Source: Ktedonobacteraceae bacterium
GTDB lineage: Bacteria; Chloroflexota; Ktedonobacteria; Ktedonobacterales; Ktedonobacteraceae
Assembly (NCBI GenBank): GCA_034436045.1
Contig: DAOTVZ010000016.1
Coordinates: forward strand, 1 to 19,260
Direction: 5' to 3'
Length of the DNA stretch: 19,260 nt
In this document: positions 1 to 17,769 of the stretch, piece after piece
How the letters are laid out: each line of letters opens with the position of its first letter
Numbering within the stretch: position 1 is the stretch's first letter
Made by a program: the position numbers and the translations under genes
Notes under the pieces: model-generated
What the model saw: only the letters and a program-made list of their open reading frames with translations
Database searches by the model: none
Told to the model about the DNA's origin: nothing

Positions 1-155
1 TAGTGTCTAGTCGGCACATGCATGATGCCGGTAATACCTGTGCCGGTATCATGCACGTCCATATCTATGCTATTCACATTATTCTCGCCGCGCGTTCCAC
101 TATTTCCTTGCGCTATGAGACACACTGAAACAAGATAGGACAGGTTTTTCACTTT

Positions 156-220
156 AAAAATGAAATTCTGCTCCATCATTGCTCATGCTGCGGGCAATGG
201 TGGAGCAGAATCCCATTTTT
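156..220. terminator. Long imperfect inverted repeat (27-nt arms 156-182 / 194-220, 11-nt loop) with A-run on the left and T-run on the right; candidate bidirectional intrinsic terminator upstream of tgt
   Basis: AAAAATGAAATTCTGCTCCATCATTGC ... GCAATGGTGGAGCAGAATCCCATTTTT. The arms are reverse complements with 2-3 mismatches. The structure is followed by TTTTTAAACTTTTTA on + and a T-run on - as well. Confidence 0.45.
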
Positions 221-238
221 AAACTTTTTAGCCCTCCC

Positions 239-290
239 TTGACGCCTGTGCGACAATGAAAGATGACTATGGCGAAACCCATGTTAGAAT
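239..290 (+). promoter_or_regulatory. Possible tgt promoter region (TTGACG at 239-244; extended -10-like TGTTAGAAT at 282-290)
   Basis: Read by eye. The spacing between the best -35-like and -10-like hexamers is not ideal, so this is weak. Confidence 0.2.
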
Positions 291-317
291 TTTTCTACGC
301 ACTCATTTGACGGAAGC

Positions 318-1499
318 ATGACATTTTTTTCTTTTACTATTGACGCGGAGTGCCCAGACACGTGGGCGCGCGCAGGCACCATCAATACGCCACACGGCAG
401 CATTCGCACGCCTATTTTTATGCCTGTGGGTACACAGGCAACGGTCAAGAGCGTCTCGCCGGAGGAACTACGCGAGGCGGGCGCGCAGATCATTCTTGCC
501 AACACCTATCACCTGATGCTGCGCCCCGGCTCAGCACTGATCCAGGAGTTTGGAGGCCTGCACCGTTTTATGCACTGGGATGGCCCCATTCTCACCGATA
601 GCGGCGGCTTCCAGGTCTGGAGCCTGGGCCACCTGCGCAAGTTGAGCGAGGAGGGCGTCACCTTCAAATCGCACCTGGATGGCTCAACGCATATGCTGAC
701 CGCCGAGCGCGTCATGCAGATTGAGGCCGAACTGGGGGCCGACATCATTCTCCCGCTCGACATCTGCGCGCCCTATCCCGGCACACCCGACACGGCCCGC
801 GCCTCCATGGAACGCACACATCGCTGGGAGGAGCGCGCCCTGTTCGCCAAAGAGCATTATCGCCCGGAGCAGGCACTGTTCGGCATCGTGCAGGGCGCAT
901 TCGAGCCGGAGCTACGACGCGAAAGCGCGCGCGTTATTGGCAACATGCCTTTTGCCGGTTTCTCTATCGGCGGCCTCTCCGTCGGTGAGCCAAAGGCGCT
1001 GATGTGGGAACTGCTCGCTTACGTAACGCCGGAACTCCCCCGCACTAAGCCACGCCATCTGCTCGGTGTGGGATCGCCGGAGGATCTGGTGATCGGCGTG
1101 GGATTGGGCATGGACATGTTCGATTGCGTCTTACCGACGCGCGTGGCCCGTCACGGTGGTCTCTTTACGCACGATGGACGCATCAACATCAAAAGTGCGC
1201 GCTACCGCAGCGAGCAGGGGCCGATTGAGGCCGACTGCACCTGTTACACCTGCCGCAACTACAGTGCGGGCTACCTGCGCCATCTCATTCAGGCCAACGA
1301 ATACCTGTATCTGCGCCTGGGCAGCATCCACAACATCCATTTCATGTTGACTCTGGCCGCGCAGTTGCGACAATCGATCATCGACGGCACCTATGTAACT
1401 TTCCGCGACAAGTTTCTGGCACGCTATATTCCCGCCTCCGAGCAGGTACGCGAACAGCAGCGGGAAAAATGGAAACAGGCCCGGCTGCGACCGGTATAA
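318..1499 (+). CDS. tgt: Queuine tRNA-ribosyltransferase (tRNA-guanine transglycosylase)
   Basis: 393 aa. Typical Tgt N-terminus (FxxxxxDxxARxGxxxTxHGxxxTPxFMPVGT) and catalytic-region motifs (LDICAPYPG, GFSIGGLSVGE). C-terminal zinc site CxCxxC...H (CTCYTCRNY...H). Confidence 0.93.
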   Translation: MTFFSFTIDAECPDTWARAGTINTPHGSIRTPIFMPVGTQATVKSVSPEELREAGAQIILANTYHLMLRPGSALIQEFGGLHRFMHWDGPILTDSGGFQVWSLGHLRKLSEEGVTFKSHLDGSTHMLTAERVMQIEAELGADIILPLDICAPYPGTPDTARASMERTHRWEERALFAKEHYRPEQALFGIVQGAFEPELRRESARVIGNMPFAGFSIGGLSVGEPKALMWELLAYVTPELPRTKPRHLLGVGSPEDLVIGVGLGMDMFDCVLPTRVARHGGLFTHDGRINIKSARYRSEQGPIEADCTCYTCRNYSAGYLRHLIQANEYLYLRLGSIHNIHFMLTLAAQLRQSIIDGTYVTFRDKFLARYIPASEQVREQQREKWKQARLRPV

Positions 1500-1524
1500 C
1501 ATCTGACGCACAAAGGGGAGAGAT

Positions 1525-2367
1525 ATGCAGCAGAGCAAAGCATACCGCTTTCTCAACACGGGGTTCCAGGACACGGCCCTGAATATGGCGATTGACGAGG
1601 CCATTTTAACGCATTATCTACGCGGCGAGGCACCGCCGACCTTGCGTGTGTTTCGCTGGAAGCGTACCGCCATCACGCTGGGTCGCTTTCAGGATGTGGA
1701 GCGCGAGATCGAGGTGGAACGCTGCCAGCAACAAAGCGTGGAACTCGTGCGCCGTCCTACCGGCGGGCGCGCCGTATACCACCGCGATGAATTCACCTAC
1801 AGCCTTGTCATCGGCAAACGGGAGGGGGTGCCGGGCGGTGTCGTCGCTGCCTATGCCTATCTGGCACAAGGCTTGATGGCCGCGCTAGACCGGCTGGGCG
1901 TGCAATCTGTTCTCAGTGAGGAGCATGTCAGCAAAAACCCTTCGGCGGCCTGCTTTGCCTCCTCTACCCAGGCCGACCTCACCGCCAGCGGCTATAAGAT
2001 CATCGGCAGTGCACAGGTCTGGAAAGATGACGGACTCCTGCAACAGGGGTCGCTCCCCCTGGAAGATCGCGCCAGCGAATTTTTTGCGCTGCTACGTTTC
2101 CCTGATGAAGAGACACGCGCACAGGCACTGGCCCGGTATCACACCAAAACGACGCCCCTGCATACCTTCAACCCGCAGGCAAGCTGGGATGATGTTGCGC
2201 GCGCCTTTCATGAGGGCTTCAACTCCTTCTTGCAACACAACTTCGTACCAGCAGAACTCAGTGCATCAGAATGGGAACTGGCCCGGCAACTGGCAGAGGA
2301 GAAATACAGTAAGCTTACCTGGAAGGCGGAAAAGGTGCAGCTCATCACACAGAATACCCAGGTATAA
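1525..2367 (+). CDS. Lipoate-protein ligase / octanoyltransferase family protein (BPL/LplA/LipB catalytic domain; LplA- or LipM-like)
   Basis: 280 aa. RRPTGGRAVYH motif characteristic of the LplA/LipB/BirA fold; Lys in YKIIGSAQ. RBS AAGGGGAGAG 5 nt upstream of ATG. Too short to carry the LplA C-terminal accessory domain, so LipM/LplJ-like. Confidence 0.85.
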   Translation: MQQSKAYRFLNTGFQDTALNMAIDEAILTHYLRGEAPPTLRVFRWKRTAITLGRFQDVEREIEVERCQQQSVELVRRPTGGRAVYHRDEFTYSLVIGKREGVPGGVVAAYAYLAQGLMAALDRLGVQSVLSEEHVSKNPSAACFASSTQADLTASGYKIIGSAQVWKDDGLLQQGSLPLEDRASEFFALLRFPDEETRAQALARYHTKTTPLHTFNPQASWDDVARAFHEGFNSFLQHNFVPAELSASEWELARQLAEEKYSKLTWKAEKVQLITQNTQV

Positions 2368-2369
2368 CG

Positions 2370-2398
2370 TTGCACGAATATCCCAGGTGCGGTACAAT
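2370..2398 (+). promoter_or_regulatory. Sigma70-like promoter TTGCAC-N17-TACAAT for the GlcG-like / membrane-protein unit
   Basis: TTGCAC 2370-2375, 17-nt spacer, TACAAT 2393-2398, immediately after the stop of the preceding gene. A roughly 100-nt leader contains a small GCTCC/GGAGC hairpin followed by a T-rich tract. Confidence 0.5.
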
Positions 2399-2502
2399 AG
2401 GCGCACGAAGCGATAACCGTCGAGAGATACTAGCTCCGCTTGGAGCGTGTCATTTTCTGCTATCATAGCACATCGTAACAAGCCAGAAGGAGTTGCAGGG
2501 CC

Positions 2503-3135
2503 GTGAGTATGTCGATAGACCTTGCGCGGCGCATACTGGAGGCCAGTAAGCAGCGCGCCAGAGAATTACGCAGTCCCGTGAGCATCGCCATTGTCGATGC
2601 CGGAGGGCACCTTGTCCTCTTTGAACGCATGATGTCCCCCTATGGATGGGTCACCGGTAATATCAGTATCGCCAAAGCGTCTACCGCTGTCATGTTCAAC
2701 CAATCTACCGACGCGGTCGCGCAGTGGGGAGGGGCCATTCCAGGTTTCGCCTCCAGCATGGCAACGATGACCGGGGGCCAGTTTATCATGGCCGCAGGCG
2801 GGTGGCCGATTCGCATGGGAGGCGCGACCATCGGCGGCATTGGCGTGAGCGGCGGGAACGCACCGGGACGCGATGATGAGATCGCCCGCGCCGGCTTGAG
2901 CGTCGTCGAAGCAATGGCCCCCGCTGCTCCAGCATTTCCAGTTTCCCAGGCAGTTCCGCCAGCGTCACCGGTATCCTACGCGGCCCCACCCCCATCACCG
3001 GCACCTGCCGCCAATCGAGCAGTCCCGCAGCCTGAGTTTCCCGGCTCACCTGCAACACACCATCTCCCCTCGCTATCCGAGAATAACGCAGCGGGAGACG
3101 ATTCCGTTAATCAGTTCGCCAATACAGACCTTTAG
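2503..3135 (+). CDS. GlcG/HbpS-like (DUF336) putative heme-binding protein with a Pro/Ala-rich C-terminal tail
   Basis: 210 aa. IAIVDAGGHLV...ISIAKASTAV...IGGIGVSGGNAPGRDDEIARAGL matches the GlcG/PduO-C/HbpS family signature. GTG start at 2503 (ATG at 2509 is an alternative), 10 nt after RBS AGAAGGAG. The C-terminal ~70 aa are low-complexity P/A/S-rich. Confidence 0.8.
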   Translation: MSMSIDLARRILEASKQRARELRSPVSIAIVDAGGHLVLFERMMSPYGWVTGNISIAKASTAVMFNQSTDAVAQWGGAIPGFASSMATMTGGQFIMAAGGWPIRMGGATIGGIGVSGGNAPGRDDEIARAGLSVVEAMAPAAPAFPVSQAVPPASPVSYAAPPPSPAPAANRAVPQPEFPGSPATHHLPSLSENNAAGDDSVNQFANTDL

Positions 3136-3144
3136 GGGGCTTCC

Positions 3145-4020
3145 ATGAGCCAGGAATACACCAACAGTAGAAAACAGCGACGGGCCAGCCGCGCCAATCG
3201 TAATCGTCCCGTCCTCGTCACCTCAACCGAGACCAACGAGTCAACCCGGACCGATAGCAACACAGCGACGGAGCAGCCATCCGCCGCCATCGCCACAGAA
3301 ACGCCACTCACTACCGACAGCCAGCCTGAAACAAAGGCGGCTCCGGCTACCGCGACGACACCGGCCTCAGGTCAGCGTACACGTCGCCTGCCAGGTTTCT
3401 TCTCCACCGTAGGTAAGAAAGAAGAGAACGCCCAGGAAGAGAAAACGAGCATCGCGCAGGCACGCATCGCTCGCGCCATCCGAGCAAAGGGTATTACCAG
3501 CACAACCGGCAAAGTCGAGGCCGTAACATCCGAAAGTACTGAAAAAAGCGACAAACGGGCCACAACCACGCAATCGACCGAGAAGACCACGCCCAGACCG
3601 GCGAGCCGCAATCCAACGAATCGACCAACCACTTTCAAGACGCGCTACATCATCGGCATGGTCGTTTACCTGCTCGCGGCTCAGCTCATCGGTGCGCTCA
3701 TCACCAGCACATTCACAGCATACAAGATCGATAGTGTTCTGCTTCAATTCCCACTCTTCGGCAGCGTGGCAGTTATCCGCACCTCGACGCTCATCTACCT
3801 GGCCATTTTAATCATACTCCTGGCCGTGCTAGCTCGCTTCGACCTGCTCCCACGCAGCCTGGGTGCGATGACCAACACCCAGACCGGTCGCAGTAGCAGC
3901 AGTAATAGCAGCAGCAACAAAAGTGAAAGCCGCAAACTGCCCACTGTGCGCCAGGGCGTCCAGGGGGCCGATGATGACCTGTACCAGCAATATCGTGCGA
4001 ATCAGCGCAAAAGGAAATAG
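3145..4020 (+). CDS. Hypothetical membrane protein: long S/T/K/R-rich disordered N-terminus plus two C-terminal TM helices
   Basis: 291 aa. Starts 9 nt after the upstream stop, so it is probably co-transcribed. No recognisable domain; two hydrophobic helices (about residues 175-195 and 215-240). Confidence 0.55.
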   Translation: MSQEYTNSRKQRRASRANRNRPVLVTSTETNESTRTDSNTATEQPSAAIATETPLTTDSQPETKAAPATATTPASGQRTRRLPGFFSTVGKKEENAQEEKTSIAQARIARAIRAKGITSTTGKVEAVTSESTEKSDKRATTTQSTEKTTPRPASRNPTNRPTTFKTRYIIGMVVYLLAAQLIGALITSTFTAYKIDSVLLQFPLFGSVAVIRTSTLIYLAILIILLAVLARFDLLPRSLGAMTNTQTGRSSSSNSSSNKSESRKLPTVRQGVQGADDDLYQQYRANQRKRK

Positions 4021-4025
4021 CGTAT

Positions 4026-4087
4026 AGAGAATGTTGTGCAAGGCACTGGCGCACTGACACTCCTGTACCCTGCACAACATTTTCTCT
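4026..4087 (+). terminator. Large hairpin (about 16-bp stem GAGAATGTTGTGCA / TGCACAACATTTTCTC) after the 3145-4020 gene; candidate intrinsic terminator
   Basis: Inverted repeat seen directly, followed by a T/C-rich tract CATTTTCTCTCTGG. Confidence 0.45.
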
Positions 4088-4122
4088 CTGGATAAAATTT
4101 CTGCCTGCCTCTTGGCTCTCTA

Positions 4123-4309
4123 TCCTTTAGGGGGATGGTGGTGGTCGGTGTAGGGGTGTCATTCATGACGCCCTGTGCGCGCATCGACGGGTGGTCAGGA
4201 TGTCATGAATGACGCCCTGTGCGCGCATCGACGGGTGGCCAGGGCGTCATTCATGACGCCCTGTGCGCGCATCGACGGGTGGTCAGGGCGTCATGAATGA
4301 CGCCCCTAC
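4123..4309. repeat. Array of four near-palindromic hairpin repeats (about 25-nt GTAGGGGYGTCAT[TC/GA]ATGACGCCCTG-type units) separated by an identical 19-nt linker TGCGCGCATCGACGGGTGG, with a CCTTTAGGG lead-in
   Basis: Units at 4150-4175, 4195-4219, 4239-4263 and 4283-4309, period 44-45 bp. The central dinucleotide alternates TC/GA/TC/GA. The outermost ends form a GTAGGGG...CCCCTAC inverted pair. Linkers are identical, so this is not a CRISPR array. Confidence 0.85.
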
Positions 4310-4343
4310 ACCGACGGATAGAGAGCCTGCCTCTTTTTCCCTC

Positions 4344-4373
4344 TTGACAATATGGGCCGTGAGTCTCTATAAT
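4344..4373 (+). promoter_or_regulatory. Near-consensus sigma70 promoter TTGACA-N18-TATAAT driving the aroF leader
   Basis: TTGACA 4344-4349; TATAAT 4368-4373. Confidence 0.6.
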
Positions 4374-4464
4374 CAACATAGAATAAAGTGCAAGGTAGTT
4401 CAACGGCAGCTTGCCGGGGAACATCCTGATAAGGGAACGCAGATTTAGAAGTGGTGTGAAGACA

Positions 4465-4551
4465 ATGCTTAGCCTGATTGTCAACCAGCAACTGAATAGC
4501 TTTTATTACTGGTTTAGCCCTCCGGCATGTGCGGTGGGCCATTTAGGCTGA
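4465..4551 (+). CDS. Candidate attenuation leader peptide (28 aa, MLSLIVNQQLNSFYYWFSPPACAVGHLG) with five consecutive aromatic codons
   Basis: ATG 4465; codons TTT TAT TAC TGG TTT at 4501-4515; stop TGA 4549-4551. Lies between the promoter and the terminator hairpin in the DAHP synthase leader. SD-like GTGGTG upstream. Confidence 0.5.
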   Translation: MLSLIVNQQLNSFYYWFSPPACAVGHLG

Positions 4552-4576
4552 GCAAAAACACCACCAGACATGCCGG

Positions 4577-4608
4577 AAGCAGAGGAAACAACCTCTGCTT
4601 TTTTGTTT
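4577..4608 (+). terminator. Intrinsic terminator / attenuator hairpin in the aroF leader (AAGCAGAGG-AAACAA-CCTCTGCTT followed by TTTTGTTTG)
   Basis: 9-bp perfect stem, 6-nt loop, U-rich tail. Located 26 nt downstream of the leader-ORF stop and 37 nt upstream of the DAHP synthase ATG. Confidence 0.65.
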
Positions 4609-4644
4609 GTCGAAAAAGTTTTAAACAGGAAAGGACTTCTCATC

Positions 4645-5718
4645 ATGATTATCAGCTTGAATAGTACAGCCAGCAACGAAGAGCGAGCCGACGTAATGGC
4701 ACACTTATGTCGCCTTACCGGTAATCAGAAACCTGTTTCCACAGTCCAGATTGATGGGCAGGAAGTAATTGCTATTGATCAGCAAAGCATAGATGAATAC
4801 AATGCCACCCTCCTCAAAGATCACCCCGCCGTCGCCACTCTTACCAATGTGAAAACCCCCTACCAGCTTGTCAGTCGCGTCTTCAAATCCACCCGGAGCA
4901 GCATCGTGGTCGGTGAAGCTCATGATTGTGATCCCGTCGTCATCGGTGGTGAACATGCCGCCCCTGTCATCATGGCTGGCCCTTGCGCCGTTGAGTCGCG
5001 CGAGCAATTACTCTCAACCGCATGTGCAGTCAAAGAGGCAGGAGCGCAAATTTTACGCGGGGGGGCCTTCAAGCCGCGCACCTCACCATACCAGTTCCAG
5101 GGCCTCGGCATTGAAGGTTTACAACTGCTGGCCGAGGCACGCGCAGCCACCGGCCTGCCGATCATCACCGAGGTCATGGAACCCGCTATGGTCGATGTAG
5201 TTGCGCAATACGCCGACATTCTGCAAATTGGCAGCCGCAACATGCAGAACTTCCCTTTACTACTGGCCGCCGGTCGCCACGCTCAGAAGCGGCCCGTCTT
5301 GCTCAAACGAGGCTTCTCCTCCACTATCGACGAATGGCTGCTGGCAGCAGAGTACATCGTTGCGGCGGGCAACCCCAACGTGATTCTGTGCGAGCGCGGC
5401 ATCCGTAGCTATGACCCGCAGACGCGCAACGTCTTCGACCTGTCCTGCGTGCCCTTGCTGCACGAACTCACCCACCTGCCTGTAATTGTTGATCCCAGTC
5501 ATGCGACGGGACGCCGCGAACTCGTTCCCCCCATGTCACGGGCCGGTATCGCCGCCGGAGCCGAGGGACTGATCATCGAAACGCATCTCGACCCGAACAG
5601 CGCACTCTGCGATGGCCGCCAGTCCATCACGCCTGAACAACTACAGAGTATCGTGCGCACCACACGCCAGCTTGCTCGCCTGCTAAACGAGGAAATGGCG
5701 CTCACGCCAGTGGCATAA
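4645..5718 (+). CDS. aroF: 3-deoxy-7-phosphoheptulonate (DAHP) synthase, type I-beta (KDO8PS-like), with an N-terminal ~90-aa ferredoxin-like/ACT-like regulatory extension
   Basis: [29 protein letters not shown] and VIVDPSH motifs typical of type I-beta DAHPS. RBS GGAAAGGA 8 nt upstream of ATG 4645. The six-frame ORF extends in frame up to 4570, but that region holds the terminator hairpin, so 4645 is preferred. Confidence 0.88.
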
Positions 5719-5833
5719 CAAAATCAGCAGGGCATATATGGTAGGGGCGTTGTGGTCGCCCACCGCCTCTCCTGGTGGCTGCCCATCGCCTTTCCACAAG
5801 AATTTCAGCTTGCAGCGTTTTTTAAGGCGCACT

Positions 5834-5863
5834 CTCGACTGAACGTATGCCTTATGGTATACT
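5834..5863 (+). promoter_or_regulatory. Possible extended -10 promoter (TCGACT ... TGGTATACT) for the ANTAR regulator gene
   Basis: TG-n-TATACT at 5855-5863 with a weak -35-like TCGACT 18 nt upstream. Confidence 0.3.
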
Positions 5864-5953
5864 GCAACCTACGTGGAGAGTATGCTATAGTATTCCATAG
5901 GATGTCCGATATTTGTGGGCATCCAGAACATATGGGCTGCGAGGTGAAACACA

Positions 5954-6526
5954 ATGCCTACGAGAGTAATTATCGCGGATGACGAAACCATCCAGCGAAT
6001 GGACTTACACGACATCTTGACGAAGCAGGGCTATCTTGTGATTGGTGAGGCCGGTGATGGGCAGAGCGCCGTCAATCTGGCACGCGAACTGCGCCCGGAC
6101 CTCGTAATTATGGACATTCGAATGCCTGATATGGACGGCATTAGCGCTGCTGAGATACTGACACAGGAGAAGATCGCCCCTGTGTTGTTGCTCACAGCGT
6201 TCGGCGATCAGCAGTTGGTCGAGCGCGCCAAAGAGGCCGGCGTTGTCAACTACATCGTGAAGCCGTTGCGCGAGAGCGAGATTGCTCCTGCCATCGAGGT
6301 CGCACTGGCCCGCTATAACGAGTTCCGCGCGATGGAAGAGAAAGCCCGCTCATTGAGCGAGCAGCTTGAGACACGCAAGATCGTGGAACGTGCGAAGGGT
6401 CTTTTAATGGAGAAGCAGGGGCTGAGCGAGCAGGAAGCCTTCCGCAAAATTCAGAAGGCCAGCATGAACAACCGCAAGTCCATGCGTGAAGTGGCCGAAG
6501 CAATCCTCCTGACCAACGAGATGTAA
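5954..6526 (+). CDS. Response regulator with REC receiver domain and C-terminal ANTAR RNA-binding antitermination domain (AmiR/NasR/PdtaR-like); no cognate kinase in the window
   Basis: 190 aa. N-terminal receiver (IIADDE..., phospho-acceptor D in LVIMDIRMPDMDG, conserved K in YIVKP). C-terminus with ANTAR signature (RKIVERAKGLLMEKQGLSEQEAFRKIQKASMNNRKSMREVAEAIL). Confidence 0.9.
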   Translation: MPTRVIIADDETIQRMDLHDILTKQGYLVIGEAGDGQSAVNLARELRPDLVIMDIRMPDMDGISAAEILTQEKIAPVLLLTAFGDQQLVERAKEAGVVNYIVKPLRESEIAPAIEVALARYNEFRAMEEKARSLSEQLETRKIVERAKGLLMEKQGLSEQEAFRKIQKASMNNRKSMREVAEAILLTNEM

Positions 6527-6586
6527 GCTGAAGCGGTGCAGCAGCGTCGCTGCGCCATCGCTTCTCTACCTGGGAAAGAAGCTATC

Positions 6587-7573
6587 ATGCAGTCGGCGAG
6601 CAATACGGCGAACCCTGAAAAAACGGTCATTATAGTTGGTATTCGTTTTCGCCCTGCGGGCCGTATCTACTCTTTTGACCCCCAGGGACAAAGCTATAAA
6701 AATGGTCAGTATGTTATTGTTGAGACGGTACGTGGCATCGAGGCGGGTCGTGTAGTAATTAGCTATAAGAAGGTGGCGGAAAGTGAGCTGAGTGAGCCGC
6801 TCAAACCTGTGTTGCGCCTGGCAACCGAGGACGAGTTACGCATGATGCTCTCTTTCAAAAGCAAAGAGAAAGATGCGCTAATCCGTTGTGCCGAACGCAT
6901 TGCCGCCCACCAGCTTCCCATGAAGCTGGTAGAGGCTGAATATGCCTTTGATGGTAGCCGTCTGACATTTTACTTCACCGCCGATGAGCGTGTTGATTTC
7001 CGTGCCCTGGTACGTGACCTGGCGGCCACCTTCCGCACACGTATCGAGTTGCGTCAAATCGGTGCGCGCGATCAGGCCAAACTCCAGGGCGGCGTCGGTC
7101 CATGCGGGAAGGCGCTCTGCTGTAGCTCGTGGATCAGCGAATTTGGCGTTGTTTCTATTAAAATGGCGAAAGAGCAGGGGCTGCCGCTCAATCCCACCAA
7201 GATTTCAGGGGTGTGCGGGCGTCTGCTGTGTTGCCTCTCATACGAAAACGATAATTATATTCAGGCCAAGCAGCGTATGCCGCAGATCGGCACCATGCTG
7301 CACACGCCCAGCGGCTACGGCAAGGTCATCGGAATCAACGTGCCGCGCAACTCCGTTGAAGTTATGTTGGAGAGCGGCGTCACCATCCAGGTGCCGGTCG
7401 ATAGCCAGCCGGAGCGCTCATCCTGTGGGGGGGGAGCCTGCTGTAGCACAACAGGCGGTCAGGGATGTAGCTGTGGCCGTGGGGGATGCGGCGGAGCCTG
7501 CGGGAATAGTGGTTGCAACTGTGGTACCTGCAAAGCTAACAAACATTTGCGCACGCAAGAAAAAGCGGATTAG
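6587..7573 (+). CDS. ricT: PSP1 C-terminal domain protein (RicT/YaaT family) with an unusual Cys/Gly-rich C-terminal tail
   Basis: LTFYFTADERVDFRALVRDLAATFRTRIELRQIGARDQAKLQGGVGPCGKALCCSSW...GVCGRLLCCLSYE is the PSP1/RicT core. Preferred start is ATG 6587 (RBS GGGAAAGAAG); the six-frame ORF begins at 6536. The tail is SSCGGGACCSTTGGQGCSCGRGGCGGACGNSGCNCGTC. Confidence 0.85.
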   Translation: MQSASNTANPEKTVIIVGIRFRPAGRIYSFDPQGQSYKNGQYVIVETVRGIEAGRVVISYKKVAESELSEPLKPVLRLATEDELRMMLSFKSKEKDALIRCAERIAAHQLPMKLVEAEYAFDGSRLTFYFTADERVDFRALVRDLAATFRTRIELRQIGARDQAKLQGGVGPCGKALCCSSWISEFGVVSIKMAKEQGLPLNPTKISGVCGRLLCCLSYENDNYIQAKQRMPQIGTMLHTPSGYGKVIGINVPRNSVEVMLESGVTIQVPVDSQPERSSCGGGACCSTTGGQGCSCGRGGCGGACGNSGCNCGTCKANKHLRTQEKAD

Positions 7574-7703
7574 AGACTTTATTACCGCCTTTCCATCCCT
7601 TATAATAAGGGTAGGAAGCGATATGTCGTGCCTACACGCTGATGTGATCGCGCTCCAGTTATTTTGTGATTGCAGGACAACGTAGGAAAGCAGGTACAGG
7701 GCA

Positions 7704-9338
7704 ATGCCATCAGACGGACAGGAAGCCGAGACTTCGCAGCAACAACAGCAGCAGGTACCTTACGCTCAGGCCAGCGCCGGGGATCCACCGGGACAGCTTC
7801 CCTTCCCATCAGCTCAACAACAGGCATCATCACCCGCCGATGCCGACGCTTACGCACCTCCTGCGCAGGGGGTGAGCGGTACCACCGCACCAGCAGACAA
7901 CCAGGCTGAAACCGATCTCCAGGCCGCGCCGGTTCAACAAACACCGCCAGCAGCGGCCCGACCGGCCATCCAGCGCCTGTTTTCGCAATTTCTCTCATTG
8001 ATTCTCATTCCACTTGTCTTTGGCGCGGTGACGTGCATTATCATTTTGCCGCTGCTCAGCATCGGACGCGCCCATCTGCCATATGCCGCCTTCTGGCCTA
8101 TTATCCTGGTCGTGCTGGCAATTGCCATTGCGCAGGGATTGGCATTGTATTACTCAGGAGAGAATACCAGCCTATGGATGCTCAGCAATGTGGGAGCTTT
8201 TTTCCTCTTCTTGCTCGTCATCACCTTCAGCATTTTTGGCCTGCTACCAGGGATCATTCTTTTTGTCGTCCTGCTTATTACCTCTATCGTTATCATACGC
8301 CGCTACAGCGTGCCGGTACCGGAAGGCTTCGTCGCCATTGTCTTTGCTTTTGGCAAATATAGCCGCACCCTCGAGGCCGGTTTCAACCTCATCCTACCCT
8401 GGGAGAAGATTGTCCGCGAGTTAAGCATCACGGAGACGACGTGGGACTGCCCGCCACAGCGCATCCAGATGTCGCATACGGAAGATGTGGTGTTGCGCTG
8501 CACTATCTCCTATCAGCTTCTGCCGGGTGAAGCTCACCTTGCCATTACTCAGGTCAAGGATTGGGAGACCAGCCTGTACAACGTCTGTTTCACCGCTATC
8601 CAGACTATCGCTACCACCTTTTCACCGGATGACCTCATTGTCTGGCAACAGGGTCTACATTCGCGTCCGGCACCAGCCGCCGACCTGGCCGTGCCGCCAG
8701 AGAGACAGGCACGCTGGGAGAAGATCAATACCTACCTGTTTGAATATATTCAAGATCGTGTCGCGGACTGGGGCATTCAGATCAACTGGGTGCGCATTCA
8801 CGACATTGTGTTGACGCCACATGCCGCACCTGTGCTGGAAGAGGCTCTCGTCACCGAATCTAACGGCAGCACTGCCGCCATGCCTGCGGAACCGGTAGTC
8901 CAGCAGGCTAATATTCCACCGCAGTCCGCCGCTTTCGGGGCCGGGCCACAGGTCGCATCTGCGCGCTCCCCGATACAGCCCCCTCCTGTAGCGGCAAAGA
9001 CCGCCCCGCCGCGCGCCCGTGCCTTCGTTCTTCCTCCTACGGTTAAGGACGAAGACCTGGAGAAGCTCCTGGCCAGAGCCTATAAAGAGGTACGCGACGA
9101 GCGCATCACCGACCCAGAAACCATCCGCAGCATCGCCAGCACATTTGCCGCCGTCGCGCAAGACCCTGTGAAGAGCCAGTTAGTCAGCTTCGATCTTGAC
9201 CGCGCCATACGCAATCTGCTCATGCAGGCTGAACGCTGCGAACAACGCTATACCGCCACTGGCATCTACAACGACGATACGCACCCGGACTGGCCCCCTC
9301 GTCGCCCCAGTGATGAGAACCTGATGGCCGGTGGCTAA
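7704..9338 (+). CDS. SPFH/band-7 (stomatin/prohibitin/HflKC-like) domain membrane protein with Q/P-rich N-terminus, four TM helices and a Pro/Ala-rich C-terminal extension
   Basis: 544 aa. The stretch PEGFVAIVFAFGKYSRTLEAGFNLILPW ... DVVLRCTISYQL ... WGIQINWVRIHDIVL resembles the SPFH core. Four hydrophobic helices lie at about residues 95-200. Low-complexity QQQQQ and PPA tracts. Confidence 0.7.
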   Translation: MPSDGQEAETSQQQQQQVPYAQASAGDPPGQLPFPSAQQQASSPADADAYAPPAQGVSGTTAPADNQAETDLQAAPVQQTPPAAARPAIQRLFSQFLSLILIPLVFGAVTCIIILPLLSIGRAHLPYAAFWPIILVVLAIAIAQGLALYYSGENTSLWMLSNVGAFFLFLLVITFSIFGLLPGIILFVVLLITSIVIIRRYSVPVPEGFVAIVFAFGKYSRTLEAGFNLILPWEKIVRELSITETTWDCPPQRIQMSHTEDVVLRCTISYQLLPGEAHLAITQVKDWETSLYNVCFTAIQTIATTFSPDDLIVWQQGLHSRPAPAADLAVPPERQARWEKINTYLFEYIQDRVADWGIQINWVRIHDIVLTPHAAPVLEEALVTESNGSTAAMPAEPVVQQANIPPQSAAFGAGPQVASARSPIQPPPVAAKTAPPRARAFVLPPTVKDEDLEKLLARAYKEVRDERITDPETIRSIASTFAAVAQDPVKSQLVSFDLDRAIRNLLMQAERCEQRYTATGIYNDDTHPDWPPRRPSDENLMAGG

Positions 9339-9352
9339 CAAAACAAAAGAAG

Positions 9353-9392
9353 AAACACTAACGGCGCTTGTTCATGTGCGCCGTTAGTGTTT
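9353..9392. terminator. Perfect 15-bp stem hairpin between convergent genes (AAACACTAACGGCGC-loop10-GCGCCGTTAGTGTTT); bidirectional intrinsic terminator
   Basis: Seen directly. On the minus strand the stem is followed by a T-rich tract (TTCTTCTTTTGTTTTGTT). On the plus strand the tail is weaker (TTTGCG). Confidence 0.6.
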
Positions 9393-9422
9393 GCGTGGAT
9401 GAACCACCATATCTAGCTGTTT

Positions 9423-9965
9423 TCAGGCATTGGAAATCGATTTCGCTTGCTTCTGCTGGATATTCGCCGTCACCAGTTCGGCAACATCTTTCTCCATTGA
9501 ACGAAGGGCTGCCACCTGTTCATTCGTCAAGACGGTATCGCTCTTGGGATCGAAGACCACATCATCGCGCTTGCAATAGTACAGGCTGCGCCAGACCTCC
9601 ATCGCCGCGTCCCACGCTGGCATGCGCTCATTGAGAAGAGCATCACCCTTCACCACCTGTTGGAAGGCATAATACGACAGCGCCAGCGCAGTGACAATGC
9701 TGATCAGCGTCAGAGCCACAATGATCGCAATACCAACCGTTCCAATATTGCTTTCAGAGCCAATCAGCACAAGAACCAGAAGGATACAAATACCGACAAA
9801 AATAGCGCTACCCAGAATATACGGCATCATGGAAACAGTCCTGGTGGGCATATCCGGTGGGGCGCAACGAGCTATACCAGAGTCATAGGCTGCCTGCATC
9901 GTCATCACCTGATCCGATTGATGACATACCGGGCAACTCGGTTTCTGGCTTTCAACAGACGACAT
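9423..9965 (-). CDS. Hypothetical membrane protein with N-terminal Cys-rich zinc-ribbon-like motif (CPVCH...C), two TM helices and a C-terminal cytoplasmic domain
   Basis: 180 aa. Strong RBS AAGGAGGAG 6 nt upstream of ATG on the minus strand. No recognisable enzymatic domain. Confidence 0.55.
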   Translation of the reverse strand: MSSVESQKPSCPVCHQSDQVMTMQAAYDSGIARCAPPDMPTRTVSMMPYILGSAIFVGICILLVLVLIGSESNIGTVGIAIIVALTLISIVTALALSYYAFQQVVKGDALLNERMPAWDAAMEVWRSLYYCKRDDVVFDPKSDTVLTNEQVAALRSMEKDVAELVTANIQQKQAKSISNA

Positions 9966-10130
9966 GAAAAACTCCTCCTTGACAACTCATACGACTCATT
10001 AATGTACCTTATAAACAGGCTCATAAGACAGGAAGCGGTGATGCTAGTTCCAATCCTAGCATAACACGTCATTGAATTTTCGACAATGCCATGCATACCG
10101 CGCGGCCACTACCCGCCTCCATTTGACGCC

Positions 10131-10512
10131 GTAGGGGCGTCATTCATGACGCCCTGTGTCCATCGACACACCCCGTCCCCATCGATAGGCCTGCCCCTAT
10201 CGACGGAGCAAGGGCATCATTCATAACACCGGGTCTCCATCCTTTAGGGAAATCTTGGTGTAGGGGCGTCATTCATGACGCCCTGTGTCCATCGACGCAC
10301 CCCGTCCCCATCGATAGGCCTGCCCCTATCGACGCAGCAAGGGCGTCATTCATAACACCGGGTCTCCATCCTTTAGGGAATTTTTGGTGTAGGGGCGTCA
10401 TTCATAACACCGGGTCTCCATCCTTTAGGGAATTTTTGGTGTAGGGGCGTCATTCATGACGCCCTGGTCGCCCGTCGATGCGCTCACAGGGCGTCATGAA
10501 TGACGCCCCTAC
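10131..10512. repeat. Second array of the same hairpin-repeat family: two full 129-bp tandem units, a truncated 52-bp unit, and a terminal 72-bp element with perfect 26-bp terminal inverted repeats
   Basis: Units start at 10131, 10260 and 10389 (the latter an internally deleted copy). At 10441-10512, GTAGGGGCGTCATTCATGACGCCCTG - 20 nt - CAGGGCGTCATGAATGACGCCCCTAC forms an exact inverted pair. The 20-nt core is the reverse complement of the array-1 linker. The lead-in motif CCTTTAGGGAA..GGT is shared with array 1. Confidence 0.85.
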
Positions 10513-10514
10513 AT

Positions 10515-10543
10515 TTGACATGCCGAGCATGACTCGCTACACT
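10515..10543 (+). promoter_or_regulatory. Sigma70-like promoter TTGACA-N17-TACACT abutting the repeat element, upstream of the YabN/MazG gene
   Basis: TTGACA 10515-10520, TACACT 10538-10543. RBS GAGAGGA lies 9 nt upstream of ATG 10581. Confidence 0.5.
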
Positions 10544-10580
10544 ACTACAAAGATTATAGCAGCAGAGAGGACTTTTTTTC

Positions 10581-12203
10581 ATGACCAGTACAGCGGCCAT
10601 TACCATTCTCGGCCTCGGCCCCGGTCACATCGACGATCTGACCTTGCAAGCACAGACAGTGTTAGCCCAGGCTGCCGAGATGGGCCAGAGCGTTTACTTC
10701 CGTACCACTGTCCATCCGACCGTTCCACCCCTGCGGCAACGTCTGCCACAATTACAGATCATCTCCTTCGACTGGCTCTACGAAGAGTCAACCGATTGGA
10801 ACAGCTTGTATCAGCGCATCGCCGACGAACTCTGCGCCATCGCCGCTCAGCAGCCCATTATCTACGCCGTACCCGGCCATCCTCTAATCGGCGAATCATC
10901 TGTACAACTTCTACTCAAACAGGCTCGTGAGCGTCATCTACAAACACGCATTGTGGCCGGTCTGTCGTTTCTCGAACCGGTATGCACCCTGCTTGGCCTC
11001 GACCCCCTGGCTCAAGGCACGCAGATTGTCGATGCTACCGACCTGGCGGCGCTGGACAGCAGCGAGGTCGCGGGCAAAATTATTCCTACCATCCCCTTGC
11101 TCGTCGGGCAGGTCTACAACCGCCGCGTAGCCAGCGCGGTGAAGCTGGCCCTCGGCGAATGCTATCCCGACGAATGGCCCGTCAAGCTGGTGCGCGCTGC
11201 CAGCGTACACGGCCTCGACCTGCCCCGACCAACTCCACCGCTAGCCGTTGAGCCGAATGAGAGAGAAGATGAGCAGAGTCAGCAAGCGCTGGCGGAACAG
11301 TTTGAAACTGCACAGGAAGAGGCTGTGATCGAAATGCCCCTCTATGAGTTAGACCGCAACCACTTCGCCAACCATCTCAGCACGCTCTACGTGCCGCCGG
11401 TCGATGCCCTGACAGCCCTGCGCGTACCGGAGACGCTGCGCTACATCACCATGCGCCTACGCCGCGAACCAGATGGCTGTCCCTGGGATCGCGCTCAGAC
11501 GCATCAGACACTGACGCGCTATGTGCTGGAAGAGAGCTACGAGGTGGTTGAGGCCATTGAAGAAGGTGACATGGATCACCTGGCCGAAGAACTGGGCGAC
11601 CTGCTGCTCCAGGTCTACCTGCATGCCGAGGTGGCCCGCCAGGCCGGAGAATTTACGCTCGGCGACGTTTTTGAGCATGTCAACGCCAAGTTGATTCGCC
11701 GCCACCCACACGTCTTTGGCGATGCCGAGGTCAACAGCGCCGCCCAGGTAGTGCGCAACTGGGAAGCCATCAAACAGCAGGAGAAACTGCAAGCCGGTAA
11801 GCCACTCAAGCAGGAAAGCCTGCTGGACGGTGTACCACTGGCTTCGCCCGCGCTGACCGTCACACGCGAATATCATAAGGTCGCCACAAAAGTCGGTTTC
11901 TATTACAAAAAAATTGAAGACCTGTATAAGAAAGTGCAGGAAGAATTGCAAGAGGTTCACGATGCCACTTCAGAAGAGCATCGCTTTGAGGAAATCGGCG
12001 ACCTGCTGCTCGTTACCGTCGAACTGGCCCACCACTATGGCATTGATGCTGAAGCTGCGCTCCGCCAGGCCAACCGCAAATTCCGCCGCCGTTTCATGCA
12101 CATGGAGCAGCAAGCCCAGGCCATGGGCCGCTCAATAGACTCGTTCACTGACGAGGAATGGGACAAATTGTGGAATAAAGCTAAAGAAGCAACAAATAAG
12201 TAA
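10581..12203 (+). CDS. YabN-like bifunctional protein: N-terminal tetrapyrrole (corrin/porphyrin) methylase-fold domain fused to tandem MazG nucleoside-triphosphate pyrophosphohydrolase domains
   Basis: 540 aa. ITILGLGPGHIDDLT...AVPGHPLIGESS gives the methylase-like fold. Two MazG EExxE/D blocks are present (EESYEVVEAIEEGD...ELGDLLLQV and EEHRFEEIGDLLLVTVELA). Confidence 0.88.
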   Translation: MTSTAAITILGLGPGHIDDLTLQAQTVLAQAAEMGQSVYFRTTVHPTVPPLRQRLPQLQIISFDWLYEESTDWNSLYQRIADELCAIAAQQPIIYAVPGHPLIGESSVQLLLKQARERHLQTRIVAGLSFLEPVCTLLGLDPLAQGTQIVDATDLAALDSSEVAGKIIPTIPLLVGQVYNRRVASAVKLALGECYPDEWPVKLVRAASVHGLDLPRPTPPLAVEPNEREDEQSQQALAEQFETAQEEAVIEMPLYELDRNHFANHLSTLYVPPVDALTALRVPETLRYITMRLRREPDGCPWDRAQTHQTLTRYVLEESYEVVEAIEEGDMDHLAEELGDLLLQVYLHAEVARQAGEFTLGDVFEHVNAKLIRRHPHVFGDAEVNSAAQVVRNWEAIKQQEKLQAGKPLKQESLLDGVPLASPALTVTREYHKVATKVGFYYKKIEDLYKKVQEELQEVHDATSEEHRFEEIGDLLLVTVELAHHYGIDAEAALRQANRKFRRRFMHMEQQAQAMGRSIDSFTDEEWDKLWNKAKEATNK

Positions 12204-12212
12204 TAGCATGAT

Positions 12213-12254
12213 AATACTGCTTTTTAATTTTAACAGTATTGTCATACTATGACA
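12213..12254. terminator. Two AT-rich hairpins (AATACTG-loop-CAGTATT and palindrome TGTCATACTATGACA) between the convergent YabN/MazG and ribE genes; candidate bidirectional terminators
   Basis: Inverted repeats seen directly. Surrounded by T/A runs. Confidence 0.4.
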
Positions 12255-12265
12255 GAATCATCAAT

Positions 12266-12844
12266 TTAATTGTGTTTGATCATCTGCGCGACATATTTGC
12301 CCAGGATATCGCTTTCGATGTTAAGCAACATGCCTGGATGAGCCAGGCCCAGGTTGGTATGTTCGCGGGTATAGGGGATGAGTGCGATAGAGAACCAGTC
12401 CGGCATACACTCGATGGTAGTCAGGCTAACGCCATTGAGAGCCACAAAGCCTTTGGGTACCACGTAGGGACGCAGCGCGACAGGCAACGCCACACGCACA
12501 GCGAGCGCAATGCCATCCTCCTCGACCGCCAGAATTGGCGTCGCGGCCTCAACATGGCCCTGCACAAAATGTCCTCCAATGCGTCCGTTGGCTGCCAGTG
12601 AGCGCTCTAGATTGACCGGCGAGCCACTCTTTAGCTCGCCGAGGCGCGTGCGACGCAGCGTCTCAGGCATGGTATCAACGCGAAACCAGTCCTTGCCCAG
12701 CGCAGTGACCGTCAAGCAGGTACCATCGACCGCGATACTATCCTTCACGGCGAGGTCTTGCAACACTGTACTTGCCTGAATCACCAGCCCCGTCGGCTCT
12801 ATCGCCTTGAGCGTGCCAACCTCTTCGACAATCCCTGTAAACAT
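12266..12844 (-). CDS. ribE: Riboflavin synthase (alpha subunit)
   Basis: 192 aa. MFTGIVEEVGT N-terminus and internal duplication typical of riboflavin synthase. RBS GAGGGGAG upstream. Confidence 0.9.
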   Translation of the reverse strand: MFTGIVEEVGTLKAIEPTGLVIQASTVLQDLAVKDSIAVDGTCLTVTALGKDWFRVDTMPETLRRTRLGELKSGSPVNLERSLAANGRIGGHFVQGHVEAATPILAVEEDGIALAVRVALPVALRPYVVPKGFVALNGVSLTTIECMPDWFSIALIPYTREHTNLGLAHPGMLLNIESDILGKYVAQMIKHN

Positions 12845-12849
12845 GACTA

Positions 12850-13332
12850 TTACTCCCCTCTATGGACGCTGCTCAATCGTTGTGGCAGCAAGGCCATCTC
12901 AATAGCAGCTTGAGCGCATTCGCGTCCACGCACGACGCGCGCCTCCGCCTGCTGCTGTGTCTCGGCGCAGACTACGCCAAAGATAATCGGCACGCCCGTG
13001 TCCAGCGCGACCCGCTGGATGCTCTGTCCGGCGGCATCCGCTACCACAACATCATGGCGCGTCTCACCTTTCATAACGCAACCAAAGCAAATCGCAGCAT
13101 GACACGACACATGCTGCAACAGCACCTTCGCACCAAAAGCCAGTTCATAAGACCCCGGCACCATCAGCACGTGGATAGCATCTTGTGCCACACCCTGCGT
13201 CAGTAGTTCATCAGTTGCTAGCCGCAGCATCGCCCCCGTGATATGCCAGTTATAGCGCGCTACCACAATGCCGATAGTCAGTCCGGCACCATCCAACCGT
13301 GTGACCGGCTCAAGTTCGTAATTTTGTAACAT
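12850..13332 (-). CDS. ribH: 6,7-dimethyl-8-ribityllumazine synthase
   Basis: Lumazine synthase motifs (GIVVARYN, VPGSYELAF, GCVMKGETRHDVV). The six-frame ORF begins at 13353 with TTG. ATG at 13332 (MLQNYEL...) with RBS GAGTGAGAG is preferred. Confidence 0.88.
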   Translation of the reverse strand: MLQNYELEPVTRLDGAGLTIGIVVARYNWHITGAMLRLATDELLTQGVAQDAIHVLMVPGSYELAFGAKVLLQHVSCHAAICFGCVMKGETRHDVVVADAAGQSIQRVALDTGVPIIFGVVCAETQQQAEARVVRGRECAQAAIEMALLPQRLSSVHRGE

Positions 13333-13356
13333 AAGCACTCTCACTCTGTTCAAATC

Positions 13357-14610
13357 TTATTGGGCAGGTTCTATCAGCACAGCTATCTCGGACATATCCA
13401 GCCAGTGGCCCATGCGCTCCTGCTTGGTTGCCAGGTAGCGACTGCTGCTGGCGGTGGGCACGATTTGCAAGGGAACACGCTCGACAGCAATACCACCCTG
13501 CGTTACTGCCAACACTTTATCAGGATTATTGGTAAGCAGGCGCGCATGAGTGACCCCCAGGTCGCGCAGGATGGCAATGGCGGCGTGATAGTTGCGCGCA
13601 TCGACCGGATAGCCCAGCCGTTCGTTGGCCTCTATTGTATCCAGGCCGCGCTCTTGCAACATATACGCCTGGAGTTTACCCGTCAGACCGATGCCGCGCC
13701 CCTCCTGCGGTAAATAGAGTAAGGCACCGCGCCCCTCCTGCGCGATCATATCTAAGGCGCGCTGCATCTGGGCCTGGCAGTCGCAGCGCTGTGAGCCGAA
13801 TACGTCGCCAGTCATGCAGGCGGAATGCAGGCGAATCAGCGGGGGTGTGCCATCGGGTATCGCCAGATTGCCGAGCGCCATGACGTGAATATCCTGCCAG
13901 GTCGCCAGTTCACGATAGTGCAGCAGGCGAAAGACGGCTCTGGCAGTGGGTAGATGCGTCTCAGCCACGATTTTCACCTTATGTTCACGGCGATAGCGCG
14001 CGATGTCATCCACCGTCACAACCGGCAATTGCCACTCCTGGAGCAAAGCCTGCAATTTCGCCCCTCGTGCCGCTTCGCCATCACGGTCTAAAATCTCGCA
14101 GATAGCCGCGCCCGGCTCCAGGCCGGCCAGCAGCATAAGGTCAACCGAAGCTTCAGTATGCCCGCGCCGTTCGAGCGTGCCACCTGGACGCGCACGCAGA
14201 GGGAAGACATGTCCCGGTTGCACCAGTTCGTCGGGGCGCGTCGTCGGGTCAATCAAGGCACGAATGGTACGGGCGCGGTCAGCAGCAGAAATACCCGAAC
14301 TGGTGCCGTAGCGCGCATCGACCGAAGCGGTAAAGGCCGTCCCCTGTAACGGTTCGCCCATGCGCTCGGCTAAGGGCAAACGCAAGGCATCAACGCGCTG
14401 ACCAGAAAGCGCGACGCAGACTAGCCCGCAGGCCTCATGTACCATAAAGTTCACCGCTGCTGATGTAATGTGCTGTGCAGCAATGCACAGATCGGCCTCG
14501 TGTTCGCGCTCCTCGTCGTCGCAAATCACCACCATCTGTCCCTTGCGCACCTGCTGTATGGCATCAATGACACGCTGCTCGCTCTCACGCGCGGACTGAC
14601 TTACCTGCAT
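13357..14610 (-). CDS. ribBA: Bifunctional 3,4-dihydroxy-2-butanone-4-phosphate synthase / GTP cyclohydrolase II
   Basis: 417 aa. N-terminal DHBP synthase half (VVICDDEEREHEADL) and C-terminal GTP cyclohydrolase II half (CxxxxxCxC zinc motif SQRCDCQAQ, LLTNNPDK). RBS GGAAGGGAG upstream. Confidence 0.92.
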   Translation of the reverse strand: MQVSQSARESEQRVIDAIQQVRKGQMVVICDDEEREHEADLCIAAQHITSAAVNFMVHEACGLVCVALSGQRVDALRLPLAERMGEPLQGTAFTASVDARYGTSSGISAADRARTIRALIDPTTRPDELVQPGHVFPLRARPGGTLERRGHTEASVDLMLLAGLEPGAAICEILDRDGEAARGAKLQALLQEWQLPVVTVDDIARYRREHKVKIVAETHLPTARAVFRLLHYRELATWQDIHVMALGNLAIPDGTPPLIRLHSACMTGDVFGSQRCDCQAQMQRALDMIAQEGRGALLYLPQEGRGIGLTGKLQAYMLQERGLDTIEANERLGYPVDARNYHAAIAILRDLGVTHARLLTNNPDKVLAVTQGGIAVERVPLQIVPTASSSRYLATKQERMGHWLDMSEIAVLIEPAQ

Positions 14611-14991
14611 TCCTGGTAGCTCCCTTCCATGAATTTACTCAACCTGGCCCGGTCGTCAGGAGTAGTACATACAGATGACCGCTCATTAGTTTGTAATTGA
14701 TAAAGCAGCGCAGGTATCTTGCCTGCGCTTACACGCAGAACGCGCACAGCCGGTTGAGAACATAAAGCGCCGCGCTGGATGCTTGTTGGCTCGTGGTGCA
14801 TAACAGTAAGATCATGCATAGAAACCCCGCCTTTGCTAAGACGTTATACCTGTATAACGTTATAAACGGTCATGCCTGCTCAAAAAACGGGGTAATGTGT
14901 ATAGGAGGAACAACATGCGGATAGTGTGAATCGCAAACCAGGTACGTAGAAGCACCTGTGCAGCACATTCACAGCGAAAACTGGCATGTCT

Positions 14992-15128: not shown

Positions 15129-15223
15129 AAACAACATATGATAAGTTGTACTAAGATCATAGTGCCGATAGACGCACTTTGTCAAGACCACAAAGCAGGC
15201 ACGTAGGCAAGACAGCCGACCCT

Positions 15224-16819: not shown

Positions 16820-16824
16820 CCTTC

Positions 16825-17766: not shown

Positions 17767-17769
17767 GCT

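Follow-up and report, generated by a model that had tools for sequence, protein, structure and literature searches.

REPs, REPINs, BIMEs, MITEs and minisatellite-bearing MITEs are all known already. Pneumococcal BOX elements are organized as boxA-boxB(n)-boxC, have inverted-repeat ends and a variable number of internal units, and occupy intergenic positions in multiple copies. A precedent for a bacterial MITE with a minisatellite is provided by BrickBuilt of Porphyromonas gingivalis (Klein, 2015, PMC4596501), and GTAG REPs have already been reported in the Chloroflexi (Di Nocera et al., 2013, PMC3733652). In the latter report, REP clusters were often tandem reiterations, and some REP dimers, including GTAG dimers, lay inside longer palindromes. 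The GTAG-15 dimers of Anabaena variabilis and the CGTC-1 dimers of Halothiobacillus neapolitanus are doublets held in such a longer conserved palindromic shell, and copies of these shells without REPs were not found (PMC3733652). More generally, the REPs and REPINs associated with RAYT genes are GC-rich palindromes with a 5' GTAG, arranged as head-to-head doublets with a short spacer (Nunvar et al., 2010, PMC2817692; Bertels and Rainey, 2011, PMC3116915; Di Nocera et al., 2013, PMC3733652), and the BIME-2 elements of Escherichia coli combine regularly spaced REPs with two alternating linker motifs in variable tandem modules.

The window considered here is a 19,260-nt stretch of DNA from a Ktedonobacteraceae bacterium (assembly GCA_034436045.1, contig DAOTVZ010000016.1, positions 1-19,260 of the forward strand). 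Upstream of aroF it contains a non-coding element of 214 bp (4114-4327) with 12-nt TIRs and a perfect 8-bp target-site duplication. The left TIR, GGCTCTCTATCC (4114-4125, plus strand), is 100% complementary to the right TIR, GGATAGAGAGCC (4316-4327, minus strand), and in the family alignment these sequences are conserved at the ends of other members. The two copies of the duplication, TGCCTCTT at 4106-4113 and again at 4328-4335, agree at 8/8 positions, the host sequence around the insertion reading ...TTTCTGCC on the left and TTTCCCTCTTGACA on the right; the same geometry, with other 8-mers, is seen at at least 13 further sites. Inside the left TIR is a subterminal segment, TTTAGGGGGATGGTGGTGGTCGGT (4126-4149, plus strand), which agrees with the family consensus TTTAGGGGGATGTTGGTGGTCGGT and recurs in a second cluster of the window at 10232-10440. 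Its counterpart on the right is reduced to a remnant, ACCGAC (4310-4315), which, in an alignment of six elements, is 11 nt (ATTTCCCCCGCAA) shorter than the family consensus. An earlier note on this DNA had recognized the array and its inverted ends, which are present as GTAG at 4150-4153 and CTAC at 4306-4309, and had called the structure MITE-like, a reading with which the TIRs and the duplication around the whole element agree. It had, however, overlooked the true extent of the element (4114-4327) and the duplications beyond it.

The interior consists of four REP units with a core of the form GGGCGTCAT[TC/GA]ATGACGCCC, beginning at 4154, 4198, 4242 and 4286 and carrying the loops TC, GA, TC and GA. 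Unit 1 (4150-4173, core 4154-4173, plus strand) opens with the GTAG tag, followed by the hairpin GGGTGTCAT-TC-ATGACGCCC, and has one stem mismatch, while unit 2 (4198-4217, plus strand; GGATGTCAT-GA-ATGACGCCC) has two. Unit 3 (4242-4261, plus strand; GGGCGTCAT-TC-ATGACGCCC) is perfect, with a stem of 11 bp when the flanking CA/TG is included. Unit 4 (4286-4309, core 4286-4305) reads GGGCGTCAT-GA-ATGACGCCC followed by CTAC and thus forms, with its GTAG tag on the minus strand, the inverted counterpart of REP unit 1. Stems of 9-11 bp and loops of 2 nt describe all four copies, so that the perfect hairpins of the earlier note hold for units 3 and 4 and not for units 1 and 2. Between the cores are three 24-nt linkers on the plus strand, at 4174-4197, 4218-4241 and 4262-4285, whose 3' ends are TCA, CCA and TCA, respectively. 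The 19-mer TGCGCGCATCGACGGGTGG is identical in 3/3 linkers and keeps a single orientation, and the earlier note had correctly described four hairpin units with identical 19-nt linkers; their period is 44 nt (cores 4154-4305). Tandem Repeats Finder assigned the aroF array a period of 44, 3.5 copies and 89% matches, and the window as a whole contains 10 core matches, where shuffled sequence would give 0.01. The segment 4106-4335, folded as single-stranded DNA, reaches -87.7 kcal/mol (z = -14.5); Rfam returned for the array only sub-threshold matches to miRNA precursors, as generic long hairpins do. A perfectly palindromic stem leaves the "orientation" of an internal unit to be read from its 2-nt loop only.

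The regular 44-nt period and the palindromic repeats are features by which repeat finders could flag the array, and a degenerate or orphan CRISPR-like array, with repeats of ~20-25 nt and spacers of ~20-24 nt, was therefore weighed. Within the array, however, all "spacers" are identical, and between arrays they are homologous, where those of a CRISPR array would be unique, and on this ground the reading is excluded, as the earlier note had argued. TIRs and a target duplication bound the array, none of the 18 long ORFs of the window scanned against Pfam matched a Cas family, and there was no match to a CRISPR direct repeat in Rfam. A CRISPR origin is accordingly extremely improbable.

The distribution of the element was examined by scanning metagenomes with the exact 26-mer GTAGGGGCGTCATTCATGACGCCCTG. 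This identified 77 stretches, mostly from samples that hold near-identical relatives of the window; exact-protein look-ups placed near-identical copies of the window locus in several JGI, ENA and Logan metagenome assemblies. One assembly, Ga0080006, contributes ~40 of the 77 stretches, and four stretches with the exact 26-mer lie on the 152-kb contig bearing the ortholog of the window. Together the 77 stretches contain 451 cores, and adjacent cores are spaced by 44 nt far more often than by any other distance (121 pairs). With these stretches and a second cluster in the window itself (10131-10515), the motif belongs to a dispersed family, as the earlier note had supposed. The basic form of the element is ~135 bp long (131-137 nt) and contains exactly two inverted GTAG REPs, 24 nt apart, in a REPIN-like arrangement. 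Its consensus order is TIR, TTTAGGGGGATGTTGGTGGTCGGT, GTAG-hairpin, 24-nt linker, hairpin-CTAC, ACCnATTTCCCCCGCAA and TIR, with imperfect complementarity reaching ~45 nt inward from the TIRs. Family members range from 131 to 577 nt and contain 1-12 modules of 44 nt, each a hairpin plus a linker; the window copy, at 214 nt, differs from the ~135-nt consensus by the loss of 11 nt of the right subterminal segment and the gain of two modules. ORFs inside the element, among them the GVMNDAPTP frames that the note had already regarded as spurious, are repeat artefacts. Gene callers annotate ORFs of 36-118 aa within the arrays.

Both ends of the shell (GGCTCTCTATCC or GGGTCTCCATCC at one end, GGATAGAGAGCC or GGATGGAGACC at the other) were found at ~22 distinct sites, and at at least 13 of these the flanking 8-mers are identical at 8/8 positions, each site having a different sequence (GGCTTTGA, TCACGGTA, TTGCTGCT, ATTTAGCG, TGCCTTGC, ACAGAACG, AACCTTTA and TGTTAGCG, among others); five more agree at 7/8. 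Mismatched pairs of left and right flanks mostly agree at no more than 4/8 positions. The same is evident in the alignment of six elements, where the first and last 8 columns are identical inside each row. No duplication was present at a few family members (L132/L147 and L104/L115). The placement is intergenic, in keeping with the check proposed in the earlier note: of 15 insertion sites tested, none splits a long ORF, and two are placed right at the end of frames that span 443-457 codons. With TIRs, a fixed-length duplication of variable sequence and a small, non-coding, multi-copy form, the element has the make-up of a MITE.

The hairpins at the center of the element have the properties of REPs. 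In the aroF array the GTAG tag is present at the foot of a short GC-rich imperfect palindrome, and likenesses to the REP/REPIN and RAYT systems extend to the head-to-head doublet with its short spacer, high copy number, extragenic location, tandem clusters and a hairpin-flanked RAYT-type gene in the same community. This candidate gene, at 8505-9050 (minus strand) of locus L099 (contig Ga0080006_1123283), has exact 26-mers on both sides and encodes an HUH/Tyr protein of 179-182 aa in which the motifs NHLHGII and REYYEHII are present. Among NCBIfam models the protein matched REP_Tyr_transpos best (E 8e-16), at 58 bits and so below the 80-bit equivalog cut-off. Approximately 2000 homologs were found, many of which are named RayT by JGI, and a copy that is 98% identical occurs in another sample; a PDB sequence search with the protein gave no match at E <= 0.01. 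The contig is from the same assembly as the window's ortholog, and the tetranucleotide correlation of its flank with the window (r = 0.91) compares with 0.77-0.95 for other loci of that assembly and 0.46-0.79 for other phyla. Composition and the shared exact REP are thus compatible with the contig having come from the same genome as the window. The RAYT candidate itself has a G+C content of 45%, against 54-57% in its flanks and in the window, which hints at horizontal acquisition. The REP-type reading of the earlier note is therefore upheld, both by the GTAG-tagged hairpins and by the occurrence, in the same metagenome, of a RAYT gene between copies of this 26-mer.

The REP core is also found well beyond these metagenomes. 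Among GTDB representative genomes the 20-nt core occurs at 79 sites in 63 stretches, with GTAG or CTAC at 60/79. In a Nitrospirae MAG (L050, e.g., 3539-4270) a RAYT gene has the core on its flanks, and a RAYT homolog lies among core copies in an Armatimonadetes MAG (L033, e.g., 7179-7955). The GTAG-tagged core was observed in Chloroflexota, Armatimonadota, Nitrospirota, a Myxococcales MAG, Pantoea and others, often together with the variant GGGCGCGATKMATCGCGCCC. Conservation this wide is unusual for a REP.

These observations bear on whether the element is a MITE at all or a pure REP/BIME cluster that spreads only by means of RAYT, an HUH enzyme acting on single-stranded hairpins, without a DDE transposase; the outer inverted repeats would then be co-mobilized flanks. 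The GTAG-tagged hairpins, the inverted doublet and the RAYT gene between identical 26-mers all fit such a scheme, for which the tandem REP clusters and palindrome-bound GTAG dimers described by Di Nocera et al. (2013, PMC3733652) also speak. Furthermore, 62 REP clusters in the same metagenomes, including those at the L099 RAYT candidate, lack the GGCTCTCTATCC shell, making the hairpin and not the shell the common denominator; those inspected are often paired with a variant REP, GTAGGGGCGTGA...TCACGCCC. It is difficult, however, to reconcile RAYT-only spread with perfect 8-bp duplications of unrelated sequence around the TIR-bounded form at 13 sites or more, since enzymes of the IS200/IS605 type are described as using no TIRs and leaving no target duplications (Nunvar et al., 2010, PMC2817692), and an REP doublet enclosed in 12-nt TIRs and 8-bp duplications would not be expected from mobilization of this kind. 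Visual inspection of four shell-less clusters revealed no duplications around them. Spread by RAYT alone is consequently considered unlikely. REPs and REPINs elsewhere also differ from those described here in that the stem here is a perfect palindrome, orientation being given by the tag and the 2-nt loop only.

A transposase that could account for the MITE features was sought in the window and in the recovered loci. None of the 18 long ORFs of the window scanned against Pfam matched an IS200-type (Y1) or any other transposase family, and no autonomous IS with matching TIRs was present in ~1.2 Mb of loci, which are a biased sample picked by their REP content. Solitary 11-12-mer matches to the TIR were set aside as chance occurrences in which the subterminal motif is absent. 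A 438-aa ORF beside the repeat at locus L074 was likewise rejected as a transposase: it has no Pfam or NCBIfam match and is the neighbor of the family member at the L106 site, joined at the repeat. A literature search for the IS family with GGCTCT ends (ISL3) produced no match. Duplications of 8 bp are made by several IS families. For this reason the element was left unassigned to an IS family.

The second cluster of the window (10131-10515, plus strand) belongs to the same family and is composite, with seven cores, tandem repeats of 129 nt and 52 nt, and a terminal canonical doublet at 10441-10515. Copies of the left end, GGTCTCCATCC, lie at 10232, 10361 and 10413 inside the tandem repeats, without a right TIR. 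The cluster is situated upstream of a MazG/tetrapyrrole-methylase gene, and the linker of its doublet is the reverse complement of that in the aroF array. Its length is strain-dependent, the intergenic distance ranging from 615 to 763 nt. In an ENA assembly (L074, 12330-12445, compared with L106, 9203-9341) the mazG-side doublet is joined to the right half of another member together with the duplication ATTTAGCG, and synteny shifts at the junction, as would result either from two elements having recombined or from an assembly chimera formed via the repeat.

Close relatives differ in the number of units at the aroF site: three in L068, four in the window and L071, six in L065, and eight in L064, L066 and L069. 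Unit counts also vary at other orthologous sites (5 vs 11, 9 vs 10 and 11 vs 12). Such counts come from short-read metagenome assemblies, which are prone to miscounting tandem repeats; the eight-unit form is nevertheless identical in three independent samples, and the four-unit form occurs in two records. The earlier note had held that an invariant array in related strains would speak against its reading; with 3-8 units at the locus, and none in more distant relatives, the array is not invariant. Across 16 arrays, linkers are 93% identical within an array against 74% between arrays, and this greater likeness within arrays indicates that modules were copied locally after insertion. Many metagenome contigs end inside arrays (L068-L073, L099, L105, L108, L109 and L137), so the family is a frequent assembly breakpoint.

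The alternation of orientation that the earlier note had described is present in the window as the loop series TC/GA/TC/GA, but it is read from the 2-nt loop alone and fails in other strains and arrays. The loop order is GA GA GA TC GA GA in L065 and GG TC GA TC GA TC TC GA in L064, and in most arrays elsewhere it is TC...TC GA. Alternation of TC and GA is therefore local to this allele and is not a rule of the family. At the aroF site CCA precedes TC units (CTA once, in the eight-unit allele) and TCA precedes GA units, and from this pairing of linker ends with loops an 88-nt, two-unit step at the locus can be deduced. An 88-nt two-unit repeat with an alternating loop, regular REP spacing, variable tandem modules and intergenic location are points of resemblance to E. 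coli BIME-2. In contrast to BIME-2, the array has one type of linker in one orientation, its alternation is not family-wide, and its REP is not of the enterobacterial Y/Z type; BIMEs are, moreover, not bounded by TIRs and target duplications, and the element here is bounded by both. An assignment to the E. coli type of BIME, with its strict alternation and two linker types, was rejected for the aroF array.

The position of the array relative to the surrounding genes had been correctly described. A long terminator-like hairpin, predicted by RNA folding at 4026-4085 (plus strand) and followed by TTTTCTCTCT, lies after a 291-aa gene, consistent with the upstream terminator reported in the earlier note, and a sigma-70-like consensus promoter of the DAHP-synthase leader (TTGACA-18-TATAAT, 12/12, 4344-4373, plus strand) begins 34 nt past the end of the array. 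The closest named homologs of the DAHP synthase, at ~70% identity, are from Ktedonobacteria, which marks the host as an uncultured, Ktedonobacteria-like bacterium within the Chloroflexota. An exact-protein look-up with the 382-aa ORF that starts at 4570 (4570-5718) gave no match. This ORF starts within a terminator-like hairpin, and the JGI calls on most relatives, like the homologs, are of 354-357 aa; the start is for this reason likely to be at 4645 (357 aa), and 4570 is probably an over-extension.

An array that precedes a consensus -35 box by 16-34 nt and follows a terminator-like hairpin at ~30 nt, with very strong secondary structure, might be a dedicated cis-regulatory device, its hairpins acting as protein-binding sites or operators for the DAHP-synthase promoter or in upstream termination. 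For enterobacterial REP/BIME sequences, binding of gyrase, IHF and Pol I and a contribution to termination have been reported (background in PMC2817692). The same element, however, adjoins unrelated genes at dozens of sites, and its size varies from 3 to 8 units among close strains. In relatives where it is absent, the promoter, leader peptide and putative attenuator are kept almost unchanged: this is the case in L161/L163, where the DAHP synthase is 76% identical and the gene order is the same, and in L160 (85%). The element is also absent from L164 (GCA_027311145.1; 76%), which shares only the downstream gene order. No REP cores are present upstream of the conserved promoter in L160, L161/L163 or L164, in which the upstream DNA is too diverged for a clean empty site; an exact one with a single TGCCTCTT was not recovered. 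The insertion at aroF is lineage-specific. Unrelated neighbors elsewhere, absence from relatives and strain-variable size make a dedicated role at aroF very unlikely.

The leader itself has features of its own. A 28-codon ORF, MLSLIVNQQLNSFYYWFSPPACAVGHLG (4465-4551), is rich in Phe, Tyr and Trp codons; downstream of it come a conserved stem, CCGGCATG...CATGCCGG, and, shortly ahead of the likely DAHP-synthase start at 4645, a hairpin with a T-run that resembles an intrinsic terminator (4575-4602). In relatives whose enzymes are 76-85% identical, the FYYWF codons and the two leader hairpins are near-invariant. The leader (4465-4645) looks like a ribosome-mediated attenuator that would sense aromatic amino acids; no Rfam family matched it. 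Elsewhere in the window, an FMN riboswitch (RF00050, 95.6 bits) is located at 14988-15132 on the minus strand, upstream of a ribBA-ribH-ribE operon.

The element at 4114-4327 is most probably a non-autonomous MITE whose core is a REPIN-like GTAG-REP doublet and which was inserted and then amplified in place as an array. The 8-bp duplications point to insertion by a staggered-cut (DDE-type) transposase acting in trans, which would have placed the element ~16 nt upstream of the -35 box of DAHP synthase. After insertion, the 44-nt module would have been amplified in place, from two to four copies here and to 1-12 elsewhere. A palindromic stem reads alike on both strands, so that the inverted hairpin pair of the basic element doubles as a direct repeat with a 44-nt offset, and replication slippage or unequal recombination could add or remove 44-nt modules, each hybrid unit inheriting a TC or a GA loop. 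An 88-nt two-unit step may have produced the TC/GA alternation at the aroF locus, and RAYT may nick or amplify the hairpins. The effect on the host is probably neutral; at most, the element would separate the upstream terminator from the aroF promoter as a structured spacer or insulator. A different proposal, that the 8-bp duplications stem from the REP/RAYT pathway itself or from an obligatory RAYT-transposase partnership, and that the arrays are promoter-adjacent contingency loci, is judged quite unlikely.

Viewed as a non-autonomous MITE with an REP-doublet core, the element has affinities with several of the systems introduced above. It shares with BrickBuilt (PMC4596501) and BOX a small non-coding form, inverted-repeat ends, variable internal units, intergenic location, multiple copies and variation among strains, but its module is a 44-nt GTAG REP hairpin with a linker, it is associated with a RAYT candidate and has an 8-bp duplication, and there is no sequence similarity. 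As in the GTAG-15 and CGTC-1 dimers, the doublets are regularly held within a longer palindromic shell that is conserved; those dimers have other sequences and hosts of other phyla, and neither target-site duplications nor internal arrays of variable copy number are reported for them (PMC3733652). What is new is a GTAG REP doublet held in TIRs, with consistent 8-bp duplications and expanded to variable 44-nt arrays, a combination that is not described in the REP and MITE literature cited here. The elements constitute a new MITE family, with an REP doublet and internal minisatellite as its core: ordinary selfish DNA with an unusual hybrid architecture.

In practical terms, the arrays break metagenome assemblies, create spurious VMNDAP-type ORFs and can pass for CRISPR arrays, but they could also serve as VNTR-like strain markers for an uncultured Ktedonobacteria-like lineage. 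If the contingency-locus proposal were true, hypervariable arrays adjacent to promoters might tune neighboring genes. The family described here bears on how REPs and REPINs spread, as it pairs canonical GTAG doublets and a RAYT candidate with the footprints of cut-and-paste transposition. A system that offers filled sites, copy-number alleles and element-free relatives allows it to be asked which enzyme moves REP doublets and how arrays grow, and if the duplications were indeed made by REP/RAYT, the family would be a mechanistic bridge from REPINs to classical MITEs.
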